Positions 1 through 16,806 of a DNA stretch of 64,000 nt are shown piece after piece. Both the position numbers and the translations under genes were made by a program. The notes below the pieces were generated by a model, which had not been told where the DNA came from, did no database searches, and was given only the letters and a program-made list of their open reading frames with translations. Position 1 is the first letter of the stretch. Each line of letters begins with the position of its first letter. Source of the DNA: Promethearchaeota archaeon (lineage in GTDB: Archaea; Asgardarchaeota; Lokiarchaeia; Sigyniarchaeales; SOKP01); assembly GCA_048939015.1 (NCBI GenBank), contig JBHLPW010000009.1:1-64000 (forward strand). Direction: 5' to 3'.

Positions 1-1498
1 TAGGTTGTGTTGCTAAGAGGAGTCTAACCTCCTTAATCTTTCCAGATTTCTCAGTTTCCTCAAATATTTTTTCCACATCTAAATTCATGTCAGAAGTGAT
101 TATTTTTTTAAAAAGATAATTTAGATAGAAAAAGTATTTTGTTTTAATTCCAAAAAATATTTTTTTTGTTCGTATTGTTCCATTGAAAAATCTTCTCTCA
201 ACCATTTCCCTAATGATAGGGAAGATTTCTTCCTTTAATTTTAGATGTTCATTACGCAGAGTTCGATATTGTTTAAAGAGATCAGTAAGAGAAACTATAC
301 TATTATTTAATAATTTATTATAAAAGTTTTGAAAGAAACTTTTTTTGCCCAAACTATAATCTTTTATAAAATTCTTGAATTCAATCTCATTGTTTACAAT
401 TTGCAAATTAAAATTATAGTTAAGATTAATATATGAAATAAGTTCATCAGAGTATTCTTCTAAACCAAAAGTGGTCTTTAAGTGATTTACATCAAAAAAT
501 TGGTCTTTTTCCAATTGTTTGAAAAGCAGCCTTTCTATTTCTTCAATAAACTTCTTCCAAATTATAGATAAAAGGATTATTAACCTCGCTGTATCCTTTA
601 ACTTGTCAGAAGTCCAATTTGTTTGCTCACTTAGAATTAATTTTAAATTTTTATTTATATAAGAAAAGATTCCCGCAGGATTATAGTCTAACATCCAAGA
701 AAATAATTCAAGAACATAAACTATCCAAAAAGTAATTTCAATATCATCAAATTGATTAAAACTAAAACCACCATTCTCTTTCTGAAGTTGTTGAATGAAT
801 TGAATTTCTTTATCTTTTACTTCAGATTCAAGATCTAAATATTTCAAACATAGAAATCTAAAAATCAGTGAAGAACCTCTCTTTTTATCACCTAAATAAT
901 TACGAAATTGGTCTCTATTAATACGAACATCAATATTAAGAATTGAAAAAATTTCCAAGACAAAATATAAAGTTCGACTAGATGATATCTCTTTGTCTAT
1001 ATTACAATCCTTGTCCTGACAATGTAGAAAATGATTACCCTTCTTGTGAGTAAAGACAAAATTTTTAATTCCTCCTTTAATTTCATCCCGTCCTTCAGAA
1101 AGAAGGTATTGATTTAATAATCCTAGATTTATTAGACATGATAAGGCTAAATAAGTTGAATATACATCAGGAAGCTTTTCAGAATGGGGAGAAGGCTTAA
1201 ATCCAATTTGATCGTATTGGCGGTATTCACATTTCTTTATGAACCGAAAAATCTCATCTTTATTAAGTGTTTTCTCTTCTTTAAGATATTTTGATAGTAA
1301 AAGATACCAAAAAATAGTCTCAATTTCTAAGTTAGGGTCATTTAATAAGTTTTGATTATAATATTGAAAGAATTTAGTCAGTTTTTCATATTCATTATAA
1401 TAAAAATTTTTGATCTCTTTTCTATTAACTCTAATAAAGGATTTAAATGGTTCTTTTTTAAAAGTTGTTATGTATGGATAAGCAGATTTCTCTTCCAC
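1..1498 (-). CDS. Partial (runs off left edge) protein with N-terminal degenerate prenyltransferase/squalene-cyclase-type repeats; not in ORF track
   Basis: Manually translated open frame from GTG 1498 (or TTG 1507) to the window edge with no stop: VEEKSAYPYITTF...IGFKPSPHSEKLPDVYSTYLALSCLINLG...QLQKENGGFSFNQFDDIEITFWIVYVLE... Confidence 0.75.
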   Translation of the reverse strand, partial: MEEKSAYPYITTFKKEPFKSFIRVNRKEIKNFYYNEYEKLTKFFQYYNQNLLNDPNLEIETIFWYLLLSKYLKEEKTLNKDEIFRFIKKCEYRQYDQIGFKPSPHSEKLPDVYSTYLALSCLINLGLLNQYLLSEGRDEIKGGIKNFVFTHKKGNHFLHCQDKDCNIDKEISSSRTLYFVLEIFSILNIDVRINRDQFRNYLGDKKRGSSLIFRFLCLKYLDLESEVKDKEIQFIQQLQKENGGFSFNQFDDIEITFWIVYVLELFSWMLDYNPAGIFSYINKNLKLILSEQTNWTSDKLKDTARLIILLSIIWKKFIEEIERLLFKQLEKDQFFDVNHLKTTFGLEEYSDELISYINLNYNFNLQIVNNEIEFKNFIKDYSLGKKSFFQNFYNKLLNNSIVSLTDLFKQYRTLRNEHLKLKEEIFPIIREMVERRFFNGTIRTKKIFFGIKTKYFFYLNYLFKKIITSDMNLDVEKIFEETEKSGKIKEVRLLLATQP

Positions 1499-1616
1499 AT
1501 TAAGCAAAGTTTAACAAATCCCGTGAGTGATTATTCTGTTTTTTGTTATTAATGAAAATATGCACATTTATTTTTTGTGGAAACAAAAATGTCAGAATAG
1601 AGAACTGAATTTGAAA

Positions 1617-7454: not shown

Positions 7455-8258
7455 TTATTTTCTTAAAAACCTTTTTGAAGAATATCTGATACCCATAAAA
7501 AGAAAAAATAAAGAGAATATTATTGTTAAAGGTAAATTCCCTATAACAATATACGCAAAATTAGGTTCTGCTGAAAAAAAATAGATTATTATAGTTACAA
7601 CGAAATATATAAATGAATTCATCAGTGCAATCTTCCAATTTGGAGCTAAAAATCCTAATATCAAATTGGGAAGTAAGAATAAAATTATGATATTAGAAGT
7701 AGATAACAAGATTAAAAAGGGCATAAATCTTGTGAATAATTGATCGGACGTATAAAATTGGTTTAGATTAAAGAAATTATATATGAATAGTGTAGTATTA
7801 ATACTCAAAAAAATTAAAATCAATGATAATGGCCCTACAATCAACCATGATAACGAAATCCTTATCAATGGAGAGTGCATAATCTTTCCTCTCAAGTTCT
7901 GATCAATTATTTTTTCCATTTCATTGGAGTATATTTTTTCGGGGTTATCATATGGTGAAAATGTGTCAATAAAATCCTGTAAAATATTCCTAAGAATTAA
8001 GGCGACAAGATCATTGTTATCATTATCACTTACAATGGCAGCTCCGATTAATCTTTCTTCTGAATGAGTTACCAAAATTAATTTATTGTTATCCCCAAGA
8101 TCAACATTTTTTACTACACTTCCTAATGCTTCCCTGCTAAAATTAGAAACTGAAGAAAAAAAGCCGATTAGAATATTCTCATCATATTTTTTTTTCATAA
8201 AATTTTTAGAATATAATAAAATTCCATTTTCGTCCAAGATATACATGCTTTTTATCAT
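7455..8258 (-). CDS. Longin-like domain fused to about 4 TM helices
   Basis: MIKSMYILDENGILLYSKNF...LIGFFSSVSNFSREALG...LIGAAIVS...ILRNILQDFIDTF matches the longin beta-beta-alpha-beta-beta-beta-alpha-alpha pattern; hydrophobic C-terminal half. Confidence 0.65.
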   Translation of the reverse strand: MIKSMYILDENGILLYSKNFMKKKYDENILIGFFSSVSNFSREALGSVVKNVDLGDNNKLILVTHSEERLIGAAIVSDNDNNDLVALILRNILQDFIDTFSPYDNPEKIYSNEMEKIIDQNLRGKIMHSPLIRISLSWLIVGPLSLILIFLSINTTLFIYNFFNLNQFYTSDQLFTRFMPFLILLSTSNIIILFLLPNLILGFLAPNWKIALMNSFIYFVVTIIIYFFSAEPNFAYIVIGNLPLTIIFSLFFLFMGIRYSSKRFLRK

Positions 8259-8295: not shown

Positions 8296-10161
8296 TTAGA
8301 TTTTTTCAAAGAATTCTACATAATCACCTAAATTAGCCTTAGATCTTTTAAAATTAAAAAGGCTAGAGCCAAATAGTTCTGTTAATTTAAGTATTATTTT
8401 TCTAGGGTCATCTTTTAAAAAGATTTTATATCTTTCATTTTTTCTTTCTTCCTGAATTTTCGCAATTTCATCTAAATCATATAATTTCTTAATCATAGCA
8501 TTATCAGGATTGTTTAATTCAACTGTTATGATTTCACCAGATCGAGGTAATTCTTTAATTAGGTTTTCAAAACTCTCTATTTTAGATTCTTGCTTTTTAA
8601 AGGTTAAAATTTGATCACAACCAGAAATTACTCCTTCAGGACCACAAAAGATTAAAATAACATGAAATTCTTTTTTAATTTTTTCTATATAGCTATTAAA
8701 CTTTTCATATTCCAATCTATTTAATATTTCATTAGGAATTAAAAACATTATTATCGTAGGGAATTGTATTAATGTTTTAGCAATCGAAAATAAAACGATT
8801 TCTAATTGTGTTAATTTAGAGTACACCTTATTTTTTTTATTTAATAAACCAGTTACTTCTAAAGCTTTTTTGATATATGACTTTGTACGACTAATTCTCA
8901 TTGGGGCTGCTAGAAATAGATCCCCCATTATCTGATCAATTTTTTGAGTAAAACCAGCACTCTTTAACATTTTATCTAACTTAGTTTTCCTATCTTTAAG
9001 GATTTCTTTTAAATTAGTTTTATATTTTATAGCTTTCTTAATTTTCATATTATTTATTTTTGAATCATATGCTGCGGGTAAAATAAATATCTTATCCAAC
9101 TCATCTTTACTTAATAATAGAATATTTCTCCCAAAAATCTCTATCTTCCCAGAATATTCGGGATAATTTCCAGAAATAGCCCATAATAAATAAAATAAAT
9201 TAAATCTATGCTGCTCATCATATAATAAACTTTCGTCATATAATATTCCTATTGATTTTCCTCTGTGAATACTAAATGAGACATTTGATATATTATTCTC
9301 TATTGATACATTGCTAAGGATTAAATGTTGTGAATTTACTCCAATTTTATCAAACTTTAATTTATTTATAACTATTTCATGAATTGTCTCAATGAGTTGG
9401 TATAAATGAGGTGGATTTTGCTCGTTCCAATTTCTAATTATATCTTCTTCATTAAATTCTCTCTCACTTATAATCTTTAAAAGTGTTTTTGAAAAAGAAT
9501 ATGATGGTAAAAGAGGATATTTTTCAAAGTTAATTTCTAACTCAATTGTAAAAAAGTTGAAGGAAATTCGAACTTCCCTGTAGTAAGGATTATTATCAAT
9601 TGGATAATTTTCATATTTTAAATCAACCAATTCAATTTCTTTATCTAGTCTTTTCAAATGTTTTTGAAATTCACTTCTTATGAGCTTCCTCATACGAGCA
9701 ATTATTTTACGGGGACTCACAAGACCATCATCATCAAAATCTGGATCTACAATAATTTCACCAAAATCTATTTCATCTTCAGATGGAGTATATATTTTTA
9801 ATAATGGAACACCTTTTTCTATAACATCCCTATTTGTGAAGAATAATACCTCAAAAAAGGATCTTTTATAGACTAAATTTAAGATTGATGCAATCCCAAA
9901 AGTTTTTTCTCTGTATGTCATCCAAAAACGTTTAGAATATCTAACAGCATCTAATATTTTTAATCTAAGGCGTTCTAATTCAACATCTCTAGAGTTCTTA
10001 AATTTATCTGTTTTCTTTACCTGGGAAATTTGAACTTCATTAGTACGCTTCATTTTAATATTCTTAAATTTATTAGAGATATGTACTTTCTTCAATACTC
10101 CTGATTTTCTTATTTTAAGACGTTTTAATGGAGGTTGCTTAAATTTTTTAGACTTCTTCAA
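8296..10161 (-). CDS. UEV/RWD (E2-like) domain(s) fused to a degenerate ABC ATPase domain
   Basis: IELEINFEKYPLLPSYSF...RNWNEQNPPHLYQLIETI; then NVSFSIHRGKSIGILYD (no Walker A), SGKIEIFG, KLTQLE (signature lost), IIMFLIP (Walker B lost); likely TTG start 10161. Confidence 0.65.
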   Translation of the reverse strand: MKKSKKFKQPPLKRLKIRKSGVLKKVHISNKFKNIKMKRTNEVQISQVKKTDKFKNSRDVELERLRLKILDAVRYSKRFWMTYREKTFGIASILNLVYKRSFFEVLFFTNRDVIEKGVPLLKIYTPSEDEIDFGEIIVDPDFDDDGLVSPRKIIARMRKLIRSEFQKHLKRLDKEIELVDLKYENYPIDNNPYYREVRISFNFFTIELEINFEKYPLLPSYSFSKTLLKIISEREFNEEDIIRNWNEQNPPHLYQLIETIHEIVINKLKFDKIGVNSQHLILSNVSIENNISNVSFSIHRGKSIGILYDESLLYDEQHRFNLFYLLWAISGNYPEYSGKIEIFGRNILLLSKDELDKIFILPAAYDSKINNMKIKKAIKYKTNLKEILKDRKTKLDKMLKSAGFTQKIDQIMGDLFLAAPMRISRTKSYIKKALEVTGLLNKKNKVYSKLTQLEIVLFSIAKTLIQFPTIIMFLIPNEILNRLEYEKFNSYIEKIKKEFHVILIFCGPEGVISGCDQILTFKKQESKIESFENLIKELPRSGEIITVELNNPDNAMIKKLYDLDEIAKIQEERKNERYKIFLKDDPRKIILKLTELFGSSLFNFKRSKANLGDYVEFFEKI

Positions 10162-13100
10162 CTTTAGGTACCTCCATTGCTTTATACCGGAAATATTGCT
10201 CCATTTTTGAATCAATCTGTTTTATTTCTAGTATTGAATTCTCGCCTATTTCCCCTTCAATTTCCTTGATTAAATTATCTATATTTAAATCGGTGAAAAC
10301 TGAATATTCGGTGCCAACTTTGTTTTCTAAAACTTTATCAATACCTTCAATCGATTCAAGTCGAGAAATCACATTCTTCCTTATTTTTTTAAATGTGATC
10401 TCAATAGATCTACCTTTACCTGGTAGAGTAGCTAAAAGCTCTATTGGTTCTCCAAAATCAATCATTCCTCGTTTTCTGCCAAAAATTGCTACTAAATGGC
10501 AAAATCGTGATTCTTCTGGATAATGAGTAATAACAATTAAAGTAGTTTTGAATTGTTCATTAATTTTAGTTAATACTAGCCAAAGGTTCTCTCTAACAAC
10601 AGGGTCTAATCCACTAGTAGGTTCATCTAATATTAAAAACATTGGTGAGTGTATTAATCCTATTGCAATACTAACTCGCCTTTTTTGTCCTCCAGAAAGG
10701 TTTTTGACATACTCATTCTCCTTATCATCTATTTCTAAGCTCCGTAAAATTCTTCGAGTTCTACTTATGATTTCTTTTTCACTAAGCCCATATTGTGTTC
10801 CAAAATATATTATATTCTCCAAGGTAGTAAAATCATTGTAAATCTTCCCTAAATCTTGTGGAACATATCCATATATTGGTCGAATTCTTTTTGAAGTACG
10901 CTTATTTATATTCATTCCGTAAATTTGACAAAACCCTGTAGTTTTTCTCATTCCAAGTAAACCTTTAATAAAAGTCGATTTACCTGCACCACTCTCTCCT
11001 AAAATTCCTAGTATTTTACCGTGTTTTACATTCATCGAGACAGAATCAACAATTAATTTTCTTCCAGCATATACACTAAGATTTTCACAATTTATAGCAG
11101 AAAACTTTTCTAAATACTCTCGTTCAAGTTTTCCTCCAATTCCTAACCTTAACTTTATCTTCTTTGTGATTGAAAGTCTTTGATGCAACTTTATAACAAT
11201 ATATAAAATGAATCCTAGCGCCTCAATCAATAACACATATATTAATAAATCAGACCAAGGTTTTGGATCAAATCTCTGATCATATCTCAATTCATCTATA
11301 ATAGACACACCGTAAGCTATATTTCTTAAATCACCTCCAAAATGGGGAATATCACCAATACCTCCAGTGTTATCACTAATGCATTGTGTAAACCATTCAA
11401 AAGTAAATCGAATATTTTCTGGTTGAAATCTATAATCATAAAGCCCTTTTGCACCAAAATAAGTTATAAAAAATGTTGAAGGTAGATCTAAATACGCTCC
11501 AAAAGCTGGCAACACTGAAAATGAGCCATCTGAAATTTGTGCATTTTTTAGAAAATCGATAGCTGCCATTTTAGAAAATGGTTCAGAATTTAGGAATTTA
11601 ATGAATATTTCAAGCCCATAATATGTAGAAATCACATCACTATGAAATCCTATAAACATCGAAAATCCCCCATCTGGATTTTGGCAAGATCTCATCCAAT
11701 GAGTTAGACTAATTTTATCAATAATATTAGATCCATTAACGATATCGAGTGAATTTAAAGCCCAATATGTACTCTCAATAGTTGAAATATTTGAATTAAT
11801 AAAATACAAGAATACTTGATAAAATGGTCCAAATAATGATAAAATAGTTTCAACATCACTATATACACTGAAACCACCATCAGGATTTTGGAGTTCTCCT
11901 AAATAATATTGAATATTGTCAATATTGGATGTATTTAACCACGTGTTTGTGAAAGGATAAAGCATTTTATAAATGTTTAATCCGCAATATGTCGCATAAA
12001 GAGTTGCATTTTCACCAGGGGAAGATCCAAAACCTCCTTCATAAGAATTATAACATAGATCAACAAAATTGATAATATTTTCTAAGATCTGTTTAGATAT
12101 TATTTCTTTATTTATAAAATCAGTGAAAATCTTAGGATTATAAGCATATAAAGCTGAAATTCCATAAAAGTTTGCCTCGATTGTAGTCTGACCGAATAAA
12201 GCATTTTTAGCTTGATAGAAATGAAGCCAATCATAATATTTTTCAGTAGCATTAATAAAATCTGATGTATGTATCAATTTTTCATCTTTAAGAATTTTAA
12301 GAGCATTCATAGTCGCCCATCCTGCTTTAAAATCTGAACTAGAATTTTGCCATGGACGTAAGCCAAAACCTCCATCTGGTTTTGCACAACTTAATATGTA
12401 AGATAGGGTCTTATTCGTATCAAATAATAAAGGTTTGTCTAGTCCTAAAATATGCAGTGTTGAAAGTGCATAATAAGTTGATTCAATATCAGAAAATCCC
12501 CCTGGGACACTTGCAAACCCATTATCAATGGTATTATAGAGAGAATTAAAATAAGTCCATATAGTAAGAAGATCTCCATAATTATATGTCAAATTCATTC
12601 CTAGATACGCTTTAATTCCAAAATTCGTTGTTTCTGCTGTTACTATGCTCAGATTACTATCTGTAAGTCTATAACTTCCTGTCAACCAGGTAGTATTAAT
12701 ATATTTTACAATATTATCATTTTTAAGGATATTACCCACGTTTAGAGTGTTTGCTAAATAGATAGCACAGGAGGTAGAAATTATATCAGTTTCATTTAAG
12801 AATGGTATTATTTTAAATCCTTTTCCATCATCTTTCAATGAATTGTTCAAATAATTAGTGATATTTTTTGTCTTATTTTGTTCGATTTTATTTGTCAAAT
12901 ATGATTTATTAATGATTTCTAATGTTTTTATAGCTTCATACGTAGAAATCATATTACCAAAACCACCTATATCTGAATATGAACCATCAGGGTTTTGCTT
13001 TTCAAAAATAAAATCTAAGAAAAAGTTAGGTTTAGAGCCTCTTATAAAAATATTTGAAATATTGTTTGGATTTACTAATTTAGAAGAAGTTTTACTAGCC

Positions 13101-13363
13101 AAAGAAAAATTTATTGAATCAATTGCTCTAAAATTAGTTTCAATTGAAGGTTCAATAAATAACCCCAACTCATTTTGATGACTCCATGTGAAAAGAGCAG
13201 ATTCTTCTTTAATTTTTTTAATTTCATCTCCCTTGATATATTCAATATATCGGATATTCACTAGAACTAAAGCAATGCTAGGTAAGCTGAAAAGCATAAT
13301 GATTAATATTATGAGCTTTAACCGTCGTTTACCTTGATGACTTAAATTTATCTTTAAACCTAT
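10148..13363 (-). CDS. Fusion: signal/TM, about 11 prenyltransferase-type repeats, TM helix, intact ABC ATPase and C-terminal regulatory-type domain
   Basis: Repeats such as QNPDGSY, CAKPDGGFG, LQNPDGGFS, CQNPDGGFS...DVISTYYGL; TM LLIYVLLIEALGFILYIVI; GESGAGKST, YVPQ, LSGGQ, ILDEP, ITH. Track start is 13297; frame is open to ATA 13363 behind GGTGA. Confidence 0.85.
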   Translation of the reverse strand: MGLKINLSHQGKRRLKLIILIIMLFSLPSIALVLVNIRYIEYIKGDEIKKIKEESALFTWSHQNELGLFIEPSIETNFRAIDSINFSLASKTSSKLVNPNNISNIFIRGSKPNFFLDFIFEKQNPDGSYSDIGGFGNMISTYEAIKTLEIINKSYLTNKIEQNKTKNITNYLNNSLKDDGKGFKIIPFLNETDIISTSCAIYLANTLNVGNILKNDNIVKYINTTWLTGSYRLTDSNLSIVTAETTNFGIKAYLGMNLTYNYGDLLTIWTYFNSLYNTIDNGFASVPGGFSDIESTYYALSTLHILGLDKPLLFDTNKTLSYILSCAKPDGGFGLRPWQNSSSDFKAGWATMNALKILKDEKLIHTSDFINATEKYYDWLHFYQAKNALFGQTTIEANFYGISALYAYNPKIFTDFINKEIISKQILENIINFVDLCYNSYEGGFGSSPGENATLYATYCGLNIYKMLYPFTNTWLNTSNIDNIQYYLGELQNPDGGFSVYSDVETILSLFGPFYQVFLYFINSNISTIESTYWALNSLDIVNGSNIIDKISLTHWMRSCQNPDGGFSMFIGFHSDVISTYYGLEIFIKFLNSEPFSKMAAIDFLKNAQISDGSFSVLPAFGAYLDLPSTFFITYFGAKGLYDYRFQPENIRFTFEWFTQCISDNTGGIGDIPHFGGDLRNIAYGVSIIDELRYDQRFDPKPWSDLLIYVLLIEALGFILYIVIKLHQRLSITKKIKLRLGIGGKLEREYLEKFSAINCENLSVYAGRKLIVDSVSMNVKHGKILGILGESGAGKSTFIKGLLGMRKTTGFCQIYGMNINKRTSKRIRPIYGYVPQDLGKIYNDFTTLENIIYFGTQYGLSEKEIISRTRRILRSLEIDDKENEYVKNLSGGQKRRVSIAIGLIHSPMFLILDEPTSGLDPVVRENLWLVLTKINEQFKTTLIVITHYPEESRFCHLVAIFGRKRGMIDFGEPIELLATLPGKGRSIEITFKKIRKNVISRLESIEGIDKVLENKVGTEYSVFTDLNIDNLIKEIEGEIGENSILEIKQIDSKMEQYFRYKAMEVPKVEEV

Positions 13364-13380
13364 TTTTTTATCACCTTAAC

Positions 13381-14355
13381 TTATTTCAAATAAGTCTCTT
13401 TTTCTTCCTCCTTTTGAATTCTAATTTGAAAAAACCTACGAAAAGAAGCAAGATCCTTACTCATAGAATTGATTTTTATATTTTCATCAATCATATAATG
13501 AATCAAACTGGTGAGATTTTCGTCAAAACCGTCCATTAAAATTTCAATTATTTCATTTCCACTCCTTAAGATGTTTTGAACGGGTTTAAATCTTTTAATT
13601 ACATCCATAATTTTTTCATTTAAATTTTCAATTGTAAATCTTGCTACTAAACCATAACTCGGTAATGATGATATTAAATTTTGGGGTGTATCGAACTCAA
13701 GTAACCTTCCGTTTCTCAAAATCGCGGCTTTATCACATATTAAAGCTGCTTCAAGATCATGAGTAATTATGAACATTGTAGTATTAAGACTTTGATTTAA
13801 TTTCTTTAAGTAGCTTAAGATATCATATCGCTTACTTGCATCAACACCCGTGGTTGGCTCATCAAGGAATAATACACCGGGATTATGAATTAATCCGATA
13901 GCCATCGATAAGCGTTTTTTCTCACCTCCACTCATATGTTTTACTGGCTTATTCCATGTATCTTCAGGTATATCTAAAATTTTAAATAGCTTCTTTGCTA
14001 CTTCTTTCGCTCGCTTTTTACTCATTCCATATGTTGAGGTAAAGATTTCAACATTAACCATTGGACTTAGATCAAAATATAAATTTAATAATTCTAACTG
14101 AGGTACATATCCAATTTTACTTAATATTCTTTGGTGATTAGATTTTTTTGCTGGAGATAAATTTGTGACCTTTACTTTTCCTGTCCAATTTTTCTTATCG
14201 ATTTGACATGTTAATACTCTAACTATTGTCGTTTTTCCTGCGCCTGAAATTCCAAATAATCCAATAATTTCTCCTTGATTTACATTAAAATTGACATCAA
14301 ATACAACTTGTTTCTCCCCGAATTTAACATTTAAATTATTGACTTCAACCATCAT
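13381..14355 (-). CDS. ABC transporter ATP-binding protein (DrrA/ABC-2 type)
   Basis: GISGAGKTT, YVPQ, MSGGE, FLDEP, ITHD. Confidence 0.95.
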   Translation of the reverse strand: MMVEVNNLNVKFGEKQVVFDVNFNVNQGEIIGLFGISGAGKTTIVRVLTCQIDKKNWTGKVKVTNLSPAKKSNHQRILSKIGYVPQLELLNLYFDLSPMVNVEIFTSTYGMSKKRAKEVAKKLFKILDIPEDTWNKPVKHMSGGEKKRLSMAIGLIHNPGVLFLDEPTTGVDASKRYDILSYLKKLNQSLNTTMFIITHDLEAALICDKAAILRNGRLLEFDTPQNLISSLPSYGLVARFTIENLNEKIMDVIKRFKPVQNILRSGNEIIEILMDGFDENLTSLIHYMIDENIKINSMSKDLASFRRFFQIRIQKEEEKETYLK

Positions 14356-14384: not shown

Positions 14385-15650
14385 TTACACCTCATATTTT
14401 CTTCTTTTAAAGATGAGAAAGGAAAATACAACTAAAATCAAGCTAATTCCAAGCAACCAAAAAAAATGATATCCCCATATAGACTGACCTTTTGTAATAA
14501 TACCACGTAATAAAGGATCTCCATGAGATAAAGGGAGTATATATGCAATAATTTGTAAATACGAAGGCATATTTTCAATAGGAATGAAAATACCACTTAA
14601 TAGAATTATCACTAAGTAAAAAGCTATAAATAATTGATTAGCCTGGGTTTTCGTTTTGCTTAATGAACTTATAAAAACACCCATAGTTATACCAGAAAAA
14701 CCTATAATAAACAGTGCTAAAAATAAATCTATTACAGAGCCTGCTAAAAACATACCCATAGCTAAAGCACTAATTAATAATAATGAACACTGAACTAGTA
14801 ATACAATTGTATATGTTATATACTTAGAAAAAATAATTTCTGATCTTGTTATTGGAGTAAGTAGAAGCCGGGCTATTGGTTTTTCTTGAACTACAATTAA
14901 TATGGATAAAACAAATGCTATGCCGAAAATCATAAATGAAAAAGTAAGAATTATATTAGAATTGAAACTAACGCTATAACCTTCTGGGATCGTAAACTCT
15001 TCAAACCCTTGTACTACAAATTGAGGTTTAAGGCTAGTGTCATTAATAAATATTTTAACTGAATCATAAACTGCATTTATATTTGTTTGAATATTTTGAA
15101 TATTTGAGGCATCCGGAATACAATCTACTAATCCAGGTAAACCTAATTCTAATAATTCAGTAAAATCAACGGGTAATGATATAATGATGTTAATTGTTCC
15201 TTCTAATAAGGCAGTCCTCGCATATTCCATTGCATAAATTTCTTCTGTAGCATTATAGAATTTAACTAATTCTAATAAAACTGATTTATTGACAGCATTG
15301 ACATACGGTATTGTATAATTGTCATGCCTTGATTCAAAAAAGTCGTTTGGATTTATAAATGTATTAGAATCATAAGATACTACAACACAAGGAATCGATT
15401 GAATCTCTTGGTTTGTATCGTTCATTGTTAAGCCTAAAAAAGCAATTATTAAAGGAGGCATTACAATAGCAAGTAATATATTGAATTTATCTGTCCATAG
15501 AAGTCGAAATTCTTTCTTAACTTGCATTATAATCCTAAAAATTTTATACTTTATACTTGAATTCTTCTTAATATCATTTTTAGATTCAACTTTTAAATTA
15601 TGACTTTTGCTTTTGATTTTCTTTATTTTTAAGTTAAAAGATTTTTTCAT
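14385..15650 (-). CDS. ABC-2 type permease with large extracellular loop
   Basis: KKEFRLLW.D, TM1, extracellular domain, RLLLTPITRSEIIFSKY, LSGIFIPIENMP, ILPLSH. Confidence 0.9.
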   Translation of the reverse strand: MKKSFNLKIKKIKSKSHNLKVESKNDIKKNSSIKYKIFRIIMQVKKEFRLLWTDKFNILLAIVMPPLIIAFLGLTMNDTNQEIQSIPCVVVSYDSNTFINPNDFFESRHDNYTIPYVNAVNKSVLLELVKFYNATEEIYAMEYARTALLEGTINIIISLPVDFTELLELGLPGLVDCIPDASNIQNIQTNINAVYDSVKIFINDTSLKPQFVVQGFEEFTIPEGYSVSFNSNIILTFSFMIFGIAFVLSILIVVQEKPIARLLLTPITRSEIIFSKYITYTIVLLVQCSLLLISALAMGMFLAGSVIDLFLALFIIGFSGITMGVFISSLSKTKTQANQLFIAFYLVIILLSGIFIPIENMPSYLQIIAYILPLSHGDPLLRGIITKGQSIWGYHFFWLLGISLILVVFSFLIFKRRKYEV

Positions 15651-15651
15651 G

Positions 15652-16806
15652 TCACACCTCTAATTTCTTAAACATATAGATGATATAAGCTAGTGAGACA
15701 AAAATCAAGGAACTTAAAATAATCCAAAATAACCTTGATAAATTTAGAGGTAAGCCTTTTAAAGTTATATCAGTTATTAGTGGGACAGCATTAGATAATG
15801 GAAGTAAATTCAGGAAAATTTGTACTCCCTGATTTGTAATATTTAAAGGAAGAATAGTTCCTGAAAAAAGAATTATAATTATAAACATAATTAGATACAT
15901 TTGGTTTGCACTTTGCTCTGTTGGACTTAAAACAGATATAAAAAGTCCAATGCACACTCCACTAAATCCAATCATTATTAGAACTAGATAGAAGTAAAAT
16001 AGTGAACCTAAACTATACAGTCCAAATAAAGCAATTGTGATTAATATTTCAGTCGATTGAAGCAACATAACTATAGAATTTGCTACTAATTTACTTAATA
16101 TTATCTCTCTCTTTGCTGTAGGTGTTATAAGCATCCGAGGAAGTGGAGCCTCAGCAACAATTGAGAGAGTGGTTAGATTCATAGTAGTTCCAAGAATTAT
16201 AATAGGTAAAATTAATGGGATTGCGTAATTCAGAATTGCAGACTCCCAAAAAGGGACATCAAATTCAAGATAAGGAACCATAATAGTAAAATTAGCAATC
16301 AACTCTGTTTGAGCTCTAAATAAAGCAATAGGTTCTTGAAGAGCAACCTCTATTGCAGTTATTGCGGTAGCATCAGATGCATCAATATGATAAATTAGAA
16401 CAGGATTAGTTTTGTTTTCAACTGATTCCGAGAAGTTTTCGGGTAATTCAATAAATATATCAATATCGCCATTCTGAAGAAAATTGTAGCATTTTTGATA
16501 AGCTTTATTATATTCTTCCTGATTTGTTGCATTAAAATATCTATAAAGGCTCCAAGATGAAGTTCCCTGTTTCATGATTGATATAAAATTACTGTCATAT
16601 TGAGAGGAATTAGTAGAGAAGTTATCATAAGTCGGCATATCATCACGAGTTATAATAGCAGACGTAAAAGATTTTGTAATTCCAACACCTGATGTAAGTC
16701 CGAAGATTAGAATGAGAATTATCGGAATTACAAACAATAAAACTAATGTTCGTTTATCAGATTTAATTCTACCAAATTCTTTTCTAATTAATCCACCTAG
16801 ATCCAT
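15652..16806 (-). CDS. ABC-2 type permease with large extracellular loop
   Basis: LIRKEFGRIKSDKR, RMLITPTAKREIILSK, FSGTILP, LLPLS. Confidence 0.9.
   Translation of the reverse strand: MDLGGLIRKEFGRIKSDKRTLVLLFVIPIILILIFGLTSGVGITKSFTSAIITRDDMPTYDNFSTNSSQYDSNFISIMKQGTSSWSLYRYFNATNQEEYNKAYQKCYNFLQNGDIDIFIELPENFSESVENKTNPVLIYHIDASDATAITAIEVALQEPIALFRAQTELIANFTIMVPYLEFDVPFWESAILNYAIPLILPIIILGTTMNLTTLSIVAEAPLPRMLITPTAKREIILSKLVANSIVMLLQSTEILITIALFGLYSLGSLFYFYLVLIMIGFSGVCIGLFISVLSPTEQSANQMYLIMFIIIILFSGTILPLNITNQGVQIFLNLLPLSNAVPLITDITLKGLPLNLSRLFWIILSSLIFVSLAYIIYMFKKLEV

Follow-up and report, generated by a model that had tools for sequence, protein, structure and literature searches.

Within a 64,000-nucleotide stretch of an Asgard archaeal genome (Promethearchaeota archaeon, contig JBHLPW010000009.1, positions 1 to 64,000; hereafter the window), a gene on the minus strand at 10148-13363 encodes a large predicted ectodomain and an ATP-binding cassette (ABC) ATPase in a single chain. 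We propose that the product of this fusion gene is anchored by a helical hairpin and belongs, as one subunit, to a heteromeric type V (ABC-2) exporter, and that its ectodomain serves as an acceptor for the exported cargo; the probability of this combined reading is put at about 0.5. Its two parts differ in strength. The architecture and the exporter-subunit role are very probable, while the cargo-acceptor role of the ectodomain is a tentative proposal. Type V exporters with an ectodomain tethered to the nucleotide-binding domain (NBD) are already known; what is new is an Asgard form with a double toroid, which is uncharacterised. A full-text literature search found no paper on the fusion family, whose database names are all automatic.

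Is the fusion a genuine gene, or were two genes joined by mis-assembly or by the loss of a stop codon? Pfam assigns both PF00432 (Prenyltrans, 1.7e-36, in four stretches) and PF00005 (ABC_tran, 9.6e-27) to the protein. A search for this pair of domains had been suggested by an initial annotation of the same DNA, and a word-index search returns it in every one of more than 120 clusters (90% identity) drawn from NCBI, JGI, ENA and Logan assemblies. These proteins are 860-1068 amino acids long and 49-89% identical, and the clusters whose source is named come from Promethearchaeota, Lokiarchaeota, Thorarchaeota or Hermodarchaeota. In an exhaustive HMMER pass with the ectodomain alone over 1.84 billion representatives, full-length matches to the ectodomain come from about a dozen clusters (50% identity). 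All of these are 1042-1153 amino acids long, the named ones are Asgard, and both domains are present in all eight that were tested. One ESM Atlas cluster holds such proteins, with 89 members that are all from Archaea.

Full-length homologues are fused without exception, down to 26% ectodomain identity. Among the HMMER ectodomain matches there is no unfused full-length form; the shorter matches are partial and are read as likely fragments, although they were not checked singly. Beyond an E-value of about 1e-28, the only matches are surface proteins that share single repeats (with PKD or collagen partners) and have no NBD. The gene is found in 38 of 301 genomes of the phylum, including 34/68 in the family to which the window belongs and 9/22 in the genus. 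It occupies one place per genome in all but one genome, which has two pieces on separate contigs. Uncut frames in the 38 genomes run to 1024-1100 amino acids without stops, and four are 654-920 amino acids long, at least two of them lying at a contig end. The recurrence of like length and the same domain pair in independent collections, in distant clusters and in uncut frames leaves a joining artefact with a negligible probability, and no point in its favour was found. Thus, the fusion is real and conserved, and is so far restricted to Asgard archaea. The joining of a double-barrel ectodomain to an ABC ATPase, as originally described, is borne out, and none of the three outcomes that the initial annotation had raised against itself was encountered: the junction is not an assembly artefact, the homologues are not always split, and the repeats are not predicted to be cytoplasmic.

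The ectodomain contains about 12 hairpin motifs of the Q-N-x-D-G-G-F or S-D-x-x-S-T-Y type, close to the 11 or so repeats first counted and taken to be enough for about two barrels. An AlphaFold2 model of residues 1-740, made from a 71-sequence alignment, has a mean predicted local distance difference test (pLDDT) score of 90.2 and a predicted template modelling (pTM) score of 0.87, and shows two (alpha/alpha)6 barrels, apparently nested and not in tandem. The ectodomain is thereby predicted, with high confidence, to be two barrels of the protein-prenyltransferase-beta type. The fold comparison is based on VIA alignments and on a separate single-barrel model, read from scores, aligned lengths and the first and last aligned residues. 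The beta subunit of RabGGTase/GGTase-3 matches with a Z score of 28.5, a root-mean-square deviation (rmsd) of 2.8 Å and 282 aligned residues, followed by GGTase-I beta (Z 26.9) and FTase-beta (Z 25-26.8). Overall, prenyltransferase beta subunits match each barrel with Z 24-28.5 and rmsd 2.4-3.4 over 255-295 residues, whereas squalene-hopene and oxidosqualene cyclases, glycoside hydrolases, epimerases and thioester domains stay at Z 14-18 against the ectodomain model.

How are the two barrels arranged in the chain? Nearly all of the listed single-barrel matches (about 285 aligned residues, rmsd 2.4-3.1) span model residues 43-696 or so, and the best-matching barrel apparently consists of a helix at 45-60 together with residues 366-694. 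The intervening residues 63-365 fold alone when modelled separately (pLDDT 92.8, pTM 0.91); this barrel superposes on FTase-beta (2zir_B) with Z 25.8 and rmsd 2.8 over 267 residues, and RabGGTase-beta clusters of the ESM Atlas match it with template modelling scores of 0.78-0.79. The triterpene cyclases SHC (1gsz_A) and OSC (1w6k_A) align with both barrels in sequence order over 472-473 residues, at Z 17.4-17.8 and an rmsd of 8.2-8.4 Å. Because the matches of about 285 residues span 43-696, the cyclases align with both barrels in order, and residues 63-365 fold alone, one barrel appears in the model to interrupt the other just behind its first helix, which is the nested beta-gamma order known from squalene cyclases. 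In the window, the first helix of the outer (beta-like) barrel would lie at 13184-13231, the inserted (gamma-like) barrel at 12269-13177, and the remainder of the outer barrel at 11282-12268, all on the minus strand; the last of these includes a near-invariant G-G-D-L-R-N just ahead of the second transmembrane helix.

Other toroidal folds were considered and set aside. Glycoside hydrolase, epimerase and thioester-domain (TED) toroids reach Z 13-17, far under the prenyltransferase beta subunits, with thioester-domain matches at only Z 14-16.5, and both Pfam and the sequence favour PF00432. Foldseek searches with the whole ectodomain give E-values of 1e-9 to 1e-6 with an rmsd of about 15 Å, in alignments that straddle both barrels.

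The likeness to enzymes is not accompanied by their known catalytic motifs. In prenyltransferases, the zinc ligands occupy the 'G-G-F … D-x-C-Y' and 'D-x-x-H-T' positions of two repeats. Every repeat of the fusion protein was inspected, and none has Cys or His at these positions, which are taken instead by Thr, Ile, Ser, Glu, Lys, Arg, Ala, Asn and the like; the profile alignments to solved prenyltransferases are repeat-level with a shifting register, and are not orthologous. A D-x-C-Y motif had been described as not visible. There is in fact a literal DLCY string at 12050-12061, and it was rejected as an FTase zinc site: it lies in the helix before G-G-F (the 'x-x-C-x-N-x-x-G-G-F' position), its Cys is the usual Cys of the repeat consensus, its Asp is not conserved (D-x-C-[YFW] in 34/90 homologues), and a His partner is missing. 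The DxDD motif is absent from the window protein, in agreement with the first description, and is found in 2/90 homologues. The VxDCTA-type acid is likewise missing from the window protein and, as DC[TS]A, from all 90 homologues (0/90), and the thioester motif C[GL]EQ is found in 0/90. The genome contains no PF01239 (PPTA) match that would indicate an alpha subunit, although at 94.9% completeness this is not proof of absence. As far as the sequence can tell, the barrels thus have none of the catalytic motifs by which prenyltransferases, class II cyclases or thioester domains are recognised, and the original suggestion that they are probably non-catalytic is consistent with this.

At the other end of the chain, the NBD (10427-11098) has every motif of an active ATPase. 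Walker A (GESGAGKS, 10976-10999), the Q-loop (10853-10867), the LSGGQ signature (10685-10699), Walker B (FLILDE, 10622-10639, with its catalytic Glu) and the H-loop (ITHY, 10520-10531) are all canonical, just as first reported, and the D-loop is intact as well. A C-terminal extension of the DrrA/GldA type follows at 10151-10426, where the drrA and GldA models align almost to the C-terminus. Among NCBIfam models, DrrA, RbbA, NodI and GldA are nearest to the NBD; the drrA model scores 3e-46, which falls below the equivalog cut-offs and supports an assignment at the level of the subgroup only. Among solved proteins, those closest in sequence are ABCA3, ABCA1, ABCA4, ABCA7 and ABCG23, all of them type V exporters. 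Both comparisons place the NBD closest to exporters of lipids or polymers. Judged by these sequence matches, the NBD is a PF00005 ABC ATPase of a DrrA/ABCA-like subgroup.

The initial annotation placed a single transmembrane helix at about 11185-11255. A helix is indeed present there (TM2, 11186-11248), seen as one strong hydropathy peak with a basic stretch after it, and a second, N-terminal hydrophobic helix lies at 13259-13321 (TM1, helix 9-35 in the model), a signal anchor behind the basic KRRLK. TM1 has a conserved G-x-P and is followed by a conserved L-V-N in the homologue alignment, and TM2 carries a near-invariant Glu in its middle. Because both helices would thus be retained and packed, the anchor most probably forms a hairpin of two helices with both ends inside (N-in/C-in); the earlier term 'single-pass' applies only if TM1 is cleaved off. 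The Glu of TM2 (residue 714 counted from the ATA start discussed below, window about 11222-11224) may touch a partner helix or a cargo head-group within the membrane.

Both helices have positive-inside flanks and the NBD is necessarily cytoplasmic, and therefore the 660 or so residues between the helices are predicted to lie outside the cell, where the first description had also put them. The abundance of N-x-S/T sequons, which had been remarked on earlier, supports this placement: the ectodomain has 17, while shuffled sequences of matched composition have 9.2 +/- 2.7 (P about 0.005), whereas the cytoplasmic part has 2 compared with 1.8. Over 90 homologues, sequon density is 2.14 per 100 amino acids in the ectodomain versus 1.06 in the cytoplasmic part. 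It is probable that the ectodomain is N-glycosylated.

The assignment of TM1 depends on where translation begins. The frame that is open down to the stop at 10148 reaches from stop to stop as far as 13375, and its first ATG, GTG or TTG is the ATG at 13297, which would give a protein of 1049 amino acids (10148-13297) with only about 13 hydrophobic residues left ahead of the ectodomain. The 22 in-frame codons 5' of this ATG encode KRRLK and the missing half of the hydrophobic helix. The upstream peptide agrees with the N-termini of full-length homologues that begin with Met, which read M-x-I-K-L-S-R-x-x-K-R-R-L-K, then the helix, then L-V-N. A relative of 89% identity (locus L006) also keeps it, its codons differing by synonymous changes. 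A Shine-Dalgarno-like GGTGA box at 13371-13375 lies 7 nucleotides upstream of an ATA at 13363, and L006 has an ATA (position 8016) with a GGTGA box in the equal place and at the equal spacing of 7 nucleotides. Since the upstream peptide matches the homologues and is conserved together with the box in the relative, translation probably starts at the non-canonical ATA 13363, the upper coordinate originally given for the gene, which makes 1071 codons. One relative has a further in-frame TTG downstream, which the gene in the window does not have.

Which proteins does the fusion work with? It is part of a tightly packed cassette of genes, all on the minus strand. Upstream lie ABC-2 permease A (15652-16806, 384 amino acids), ABC-2 permease B (14385-15650, 421 amino acids) and a stand-alone DrrA-type ATPase (13381-14355, 324 amino acids). 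Both permeases belong to ABC2_membrane_3 in Pfam and have a predicted extracellular loop of about 150 residues after their first transmembrane helix. The catalytic NBD of the stand-alone ATPase is intact and is only 32% identical to the NBD of the fusion, which fits an NBD heterodimer on a permease A/B heterodimer. Among NCBIfam models, RbbA is the best match for both permeases and the second-best for both NBDs.

Downstream of the fusion lies a pseudo-ATPase (8296-10053), whose NBD-like C-terminal half has no Walker A and no Walker B Asp-Glu and has a signature that reads LTQLE; its N-terminal domain of about 230 residues has no Pfam match. The formal open reading frame of this gene reaches a TTG at 10215, and because this listed start overlaps the end of the fusion gene, M55 at 10053 is the likelier one. 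Next comes a membrane protein of 267 amino acids (7455-8258) with a longin-like, cytoplasmic N-terminal domain and about four transmembrane helices; the longin-like domain has only sub-threshold Pfam matches (Sybindin 0.039, Intu_longin_1 0.067).

The order permease, permease, ATPase, fusion, pseudo-ATPase is kept at loci with 29-32% ectodomain identity, where genes overlap or abut and stop and start codons often overlap. The pseudo-ATPase gene is directly downstream of the fusion at every locus examined, and the permease arrangement is conserved in L001, L003, L004 and L006. The longin-like gene is kept in three of the four distant loci as well as in L006: L001 and L004 conserve the protein itself, and at L005 and L006 a gene of like length stands in the corresponding place. 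L003 has no longin-like gene, and its pseudo-ATPase has no N-terminal domain. In the genus, fusion-positive genomes are the only ones with orthologues of permease B (70-73% identity), which lie right beside the fusion, and the fusion-negative genomes of the genus give no match at 1e-10. Thus, genomes of the genus carry the cassette as a whole or not at all, which points to its inheritance as one unit.

Several further genes were observed near these loci or elsewhere in the genome. The cassettes of L001 and L004 are flanked by genes of the VWA, RING-like, protein-kinase and Arf/Ras families, which may be coincidental. The genome has two more PF00432 toroid proteins without an NBD, one at window 2-1507 (minus strand) and one at L007 2316-5357, the latter adjoining a trypsin-like peptidase at L007 5447-6499. 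A PF01650 (Peptidase_C13) gene in L006 has a place that matches that of the gene adjoining the window toroid at 2-1507.

Taken together, the proposed chain would run from a short basic N-terminus inside the cell through TM1, an ectodomain of about 660 residues outside and TM2 to the ATPase and its C-terminal extension inside. The fusion NBD would pair with the stand-alone ATPase on the heterodimer of permeases A and B, so that each pump would carry one ectodomain, its nested toroids standing beside the two permease loops. The barrels would act as a non-enzymatic acceptor or holder of extruded hydrophobic cargo, plausibly an isoprenoid or a polyprenyl-linked molecule, and the covalent link through TM2 may allow ATP-driven movement of the NBD to reposition the ectodomain. 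Such a role would resemble that of the extracellular domain of Bacillus subtilis TagH, of LptC/LptA or of ABCA ectodomains.

The closest precedent in arrangement is TagGH, the type V exporter of wall teichoic acid in B. subtilis, in which the NBD is fused to a transmembrane helix and an extracellular SH3b-like domain, the presumed binder of the exported polymer (PMC11466899). In both cases a type V ATPase subunit is covalently joined via a transmembrane helix to a folded domain outside the cell, and the cargo of TagGH is polyprenyl-linked. However, TagH has the order NBD, single transmembrane helix and small C-terminal SH3b-like domain, whereas the Asgard protein has the order transmembrane helix, double toroid of 660 residues, transmembrane helix and NBD. 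The NBD of TagGH is homodimeric, giving two ectodomains, while the cassette described here has two different NBDs, two different permeases and a pseudo-ATPase. Since the ectodomain folds are unrelated and there is no sequence kinship past the NBD, TagGH is an analogue and not a homologue.

The barrels resemble two enzyme families. Each barrel superposes far better on prenyltransferase beta subunits (RabGGTase/GGTase-3, GGTase-I, FTase) than on other folds and shares the PF00432 repeat with them, although sequence similarity is confined to the repeat level, with a register that shifts. These subunits are cytosolic and have one barrel, whereas the fusion has two per chain in an extracellular and predictedly glycosylated ectodomain, has no Asp/Cys/His zinc ligands and comes from a genome in which no alpha subunit was found. 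The class II triterpene cyclases (SHC, OSC) also have two (alpha/alpha) barrels per chain; in them, one barrel interrupts the other behind its first helix, an order that the fusion model appears to share. By contrast with the fusion, they possess DxDD or VxDCTA motifs and are monotopic on the cytoplasmic face, whereas its ectodomain is predicted to be extracellular and tethered; with Z only 17-18 and an rmsd of more than 8 Å for the pair, the inter-barrel geometry is unlike, and each fusion barrel is closer to prenyltransferase beta.

The lipid exporters ABCA1, ABCA3, ABCA4 and ABCA7 are among the nearest solved relatives of the fusion NBD. Each half of an ABCA protein has a first transmembrane helix, a large ectodomain, further transmembrane helices, an NBD and a regulatory domain, and the ectodomains receive extruded lipid. 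The ABCA ectodomains, which are unrelated in fold, are set within a six-helix transmembrane domain, whereas the fusion has two transmembrane helices and the six-helix permeases are encoded by separate genes. Two different NBDs on two different ABC2_membrane_3 permeases, as proposed for the Asgard cassette, are also found in Escherichia coli YbhFSR/RbbA.

Several points weigh against the proposed cargo-accepting exporter subunit. The hydrophobic ligand, already suggested by the initial annotation, is putative, and the lack of known catalytic motifs leaves room for a new active site. There are three NBD-like proteins for two permeases; the proposed NBD partner of the fusion is putative, and the model gives the pseudo-ATPase no part. 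The nesting of the barrels is read from the first and last aligned residues and from aligned lengths, not from a residue-by-residue alignment, and an rmsd of more than 8 Å for the two-barrel match to SHC and OSC implies that the predicted barrels are oriented differently relative to each other. Finally, a distribution as patchy as half of the family and 9/22 of the genus fits an accessory function and not the core housekeeping of lipids.

Could the ectodomain be a receptor? It might sense an external ligand and control the ATPase, or signal through the pseudo-ATPase and the longin-like protein, without handling any cargo. The topology is receptor-like, as the initial annotation had stressed in calling it unusual for an ABC NBD; the description is fair, but TagGH provides a precedent, and the protein is one subunit of an ABC-2 cassette and not a lone receptor. 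The conserved downstream partners, a dead NBD with a variable N-terminal domain and, at most loci, a longin-like membrane protein, would suit signalling, and sensing via transport is known for Bce-type ABC systems (PMC11466899). Set against this, the two catalytic NBDs and the two permeases are all intact and inherited together, a signalling output domain was not found, and L003 indicates that the longin-like gene and the N-terminal domain of the pseudo-ATPase are not core parts. A sensor that does not handle cargo is therefore unlikely, if less so than the other alternatives.

That the double barrel is instead a new enzyme, which modifies or cyclises prenyl or terpenoid groups on an exported substrate with an unrecognised active site, is somewhat less likely again. 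The closest folds are all enzymes, and some polar residues that are not part of the repeat glycines are near-invariant, among them H62/N64/E71 and D671/D678/R680/N681 in the ATA numbering. However, many conserved positions are part of the structural repeat motif, diphosphate-activated substrates are not expected outside the cell, and neither the zinc triad nor DxDD, DCTA or the thioester motif is conserved, with no PPTA repeat of an alpha subunit found in the 94.9%-complete genome. Archaeal binding proteins are often membrane-tethered and (alpha/alpha)6 barrels can bind large cofactors, which would allow for an importer with a built-in binding protein, its barrels capturing a quinone, isoprenoid or corrinoid nutrient for the permeases. 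This is improbable: the permeases are of the ABC-2 (type V) kind and the NBDs DrrA/ABCA-like, groups whose characterised cases export, flip or extrude, and no solute-binding-protein fold is present.

The exporter-subunit reading can also be extended, at a low probability, into a broader speculation. The cassette might be an Asgard-specific machine that pumps out or hands on isoprenoid membrane lipids or dolichol-linked glycans in a regulated way. An ABCA-like pump would deliver its cargo to an extracellular double prenyl-binding toroid under the control of two cytoplasmic modules of eukaryotic type, the longin-like membrane protein and the pseudo-ATPase with its possibly E2/UEV-like domain. 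In such a machine, regulated export or trafficking of lipids would have a forerunner among prokaryotes.

ABC ATPases are normally soluble motor subunits. In these Asgard archaea, the motor appears to be tied through the membrane to a large extracellular module from a family of isoprenoid-binding folds. If the barrels receive cargo, the cassette would provide a compact and genetically defined model for the hand-off of hydrophobic or polyprenyl-linked substrates by type V exporters to an acceptor outside the cell, and it might point to the exporters of lipid-linked glycans or lipids in archaea. The constant presence of a dead ATPase and the usual presence of a longin-like membrane protein offer a testable link between a transporter and regulatory domains of eukaryotic type.

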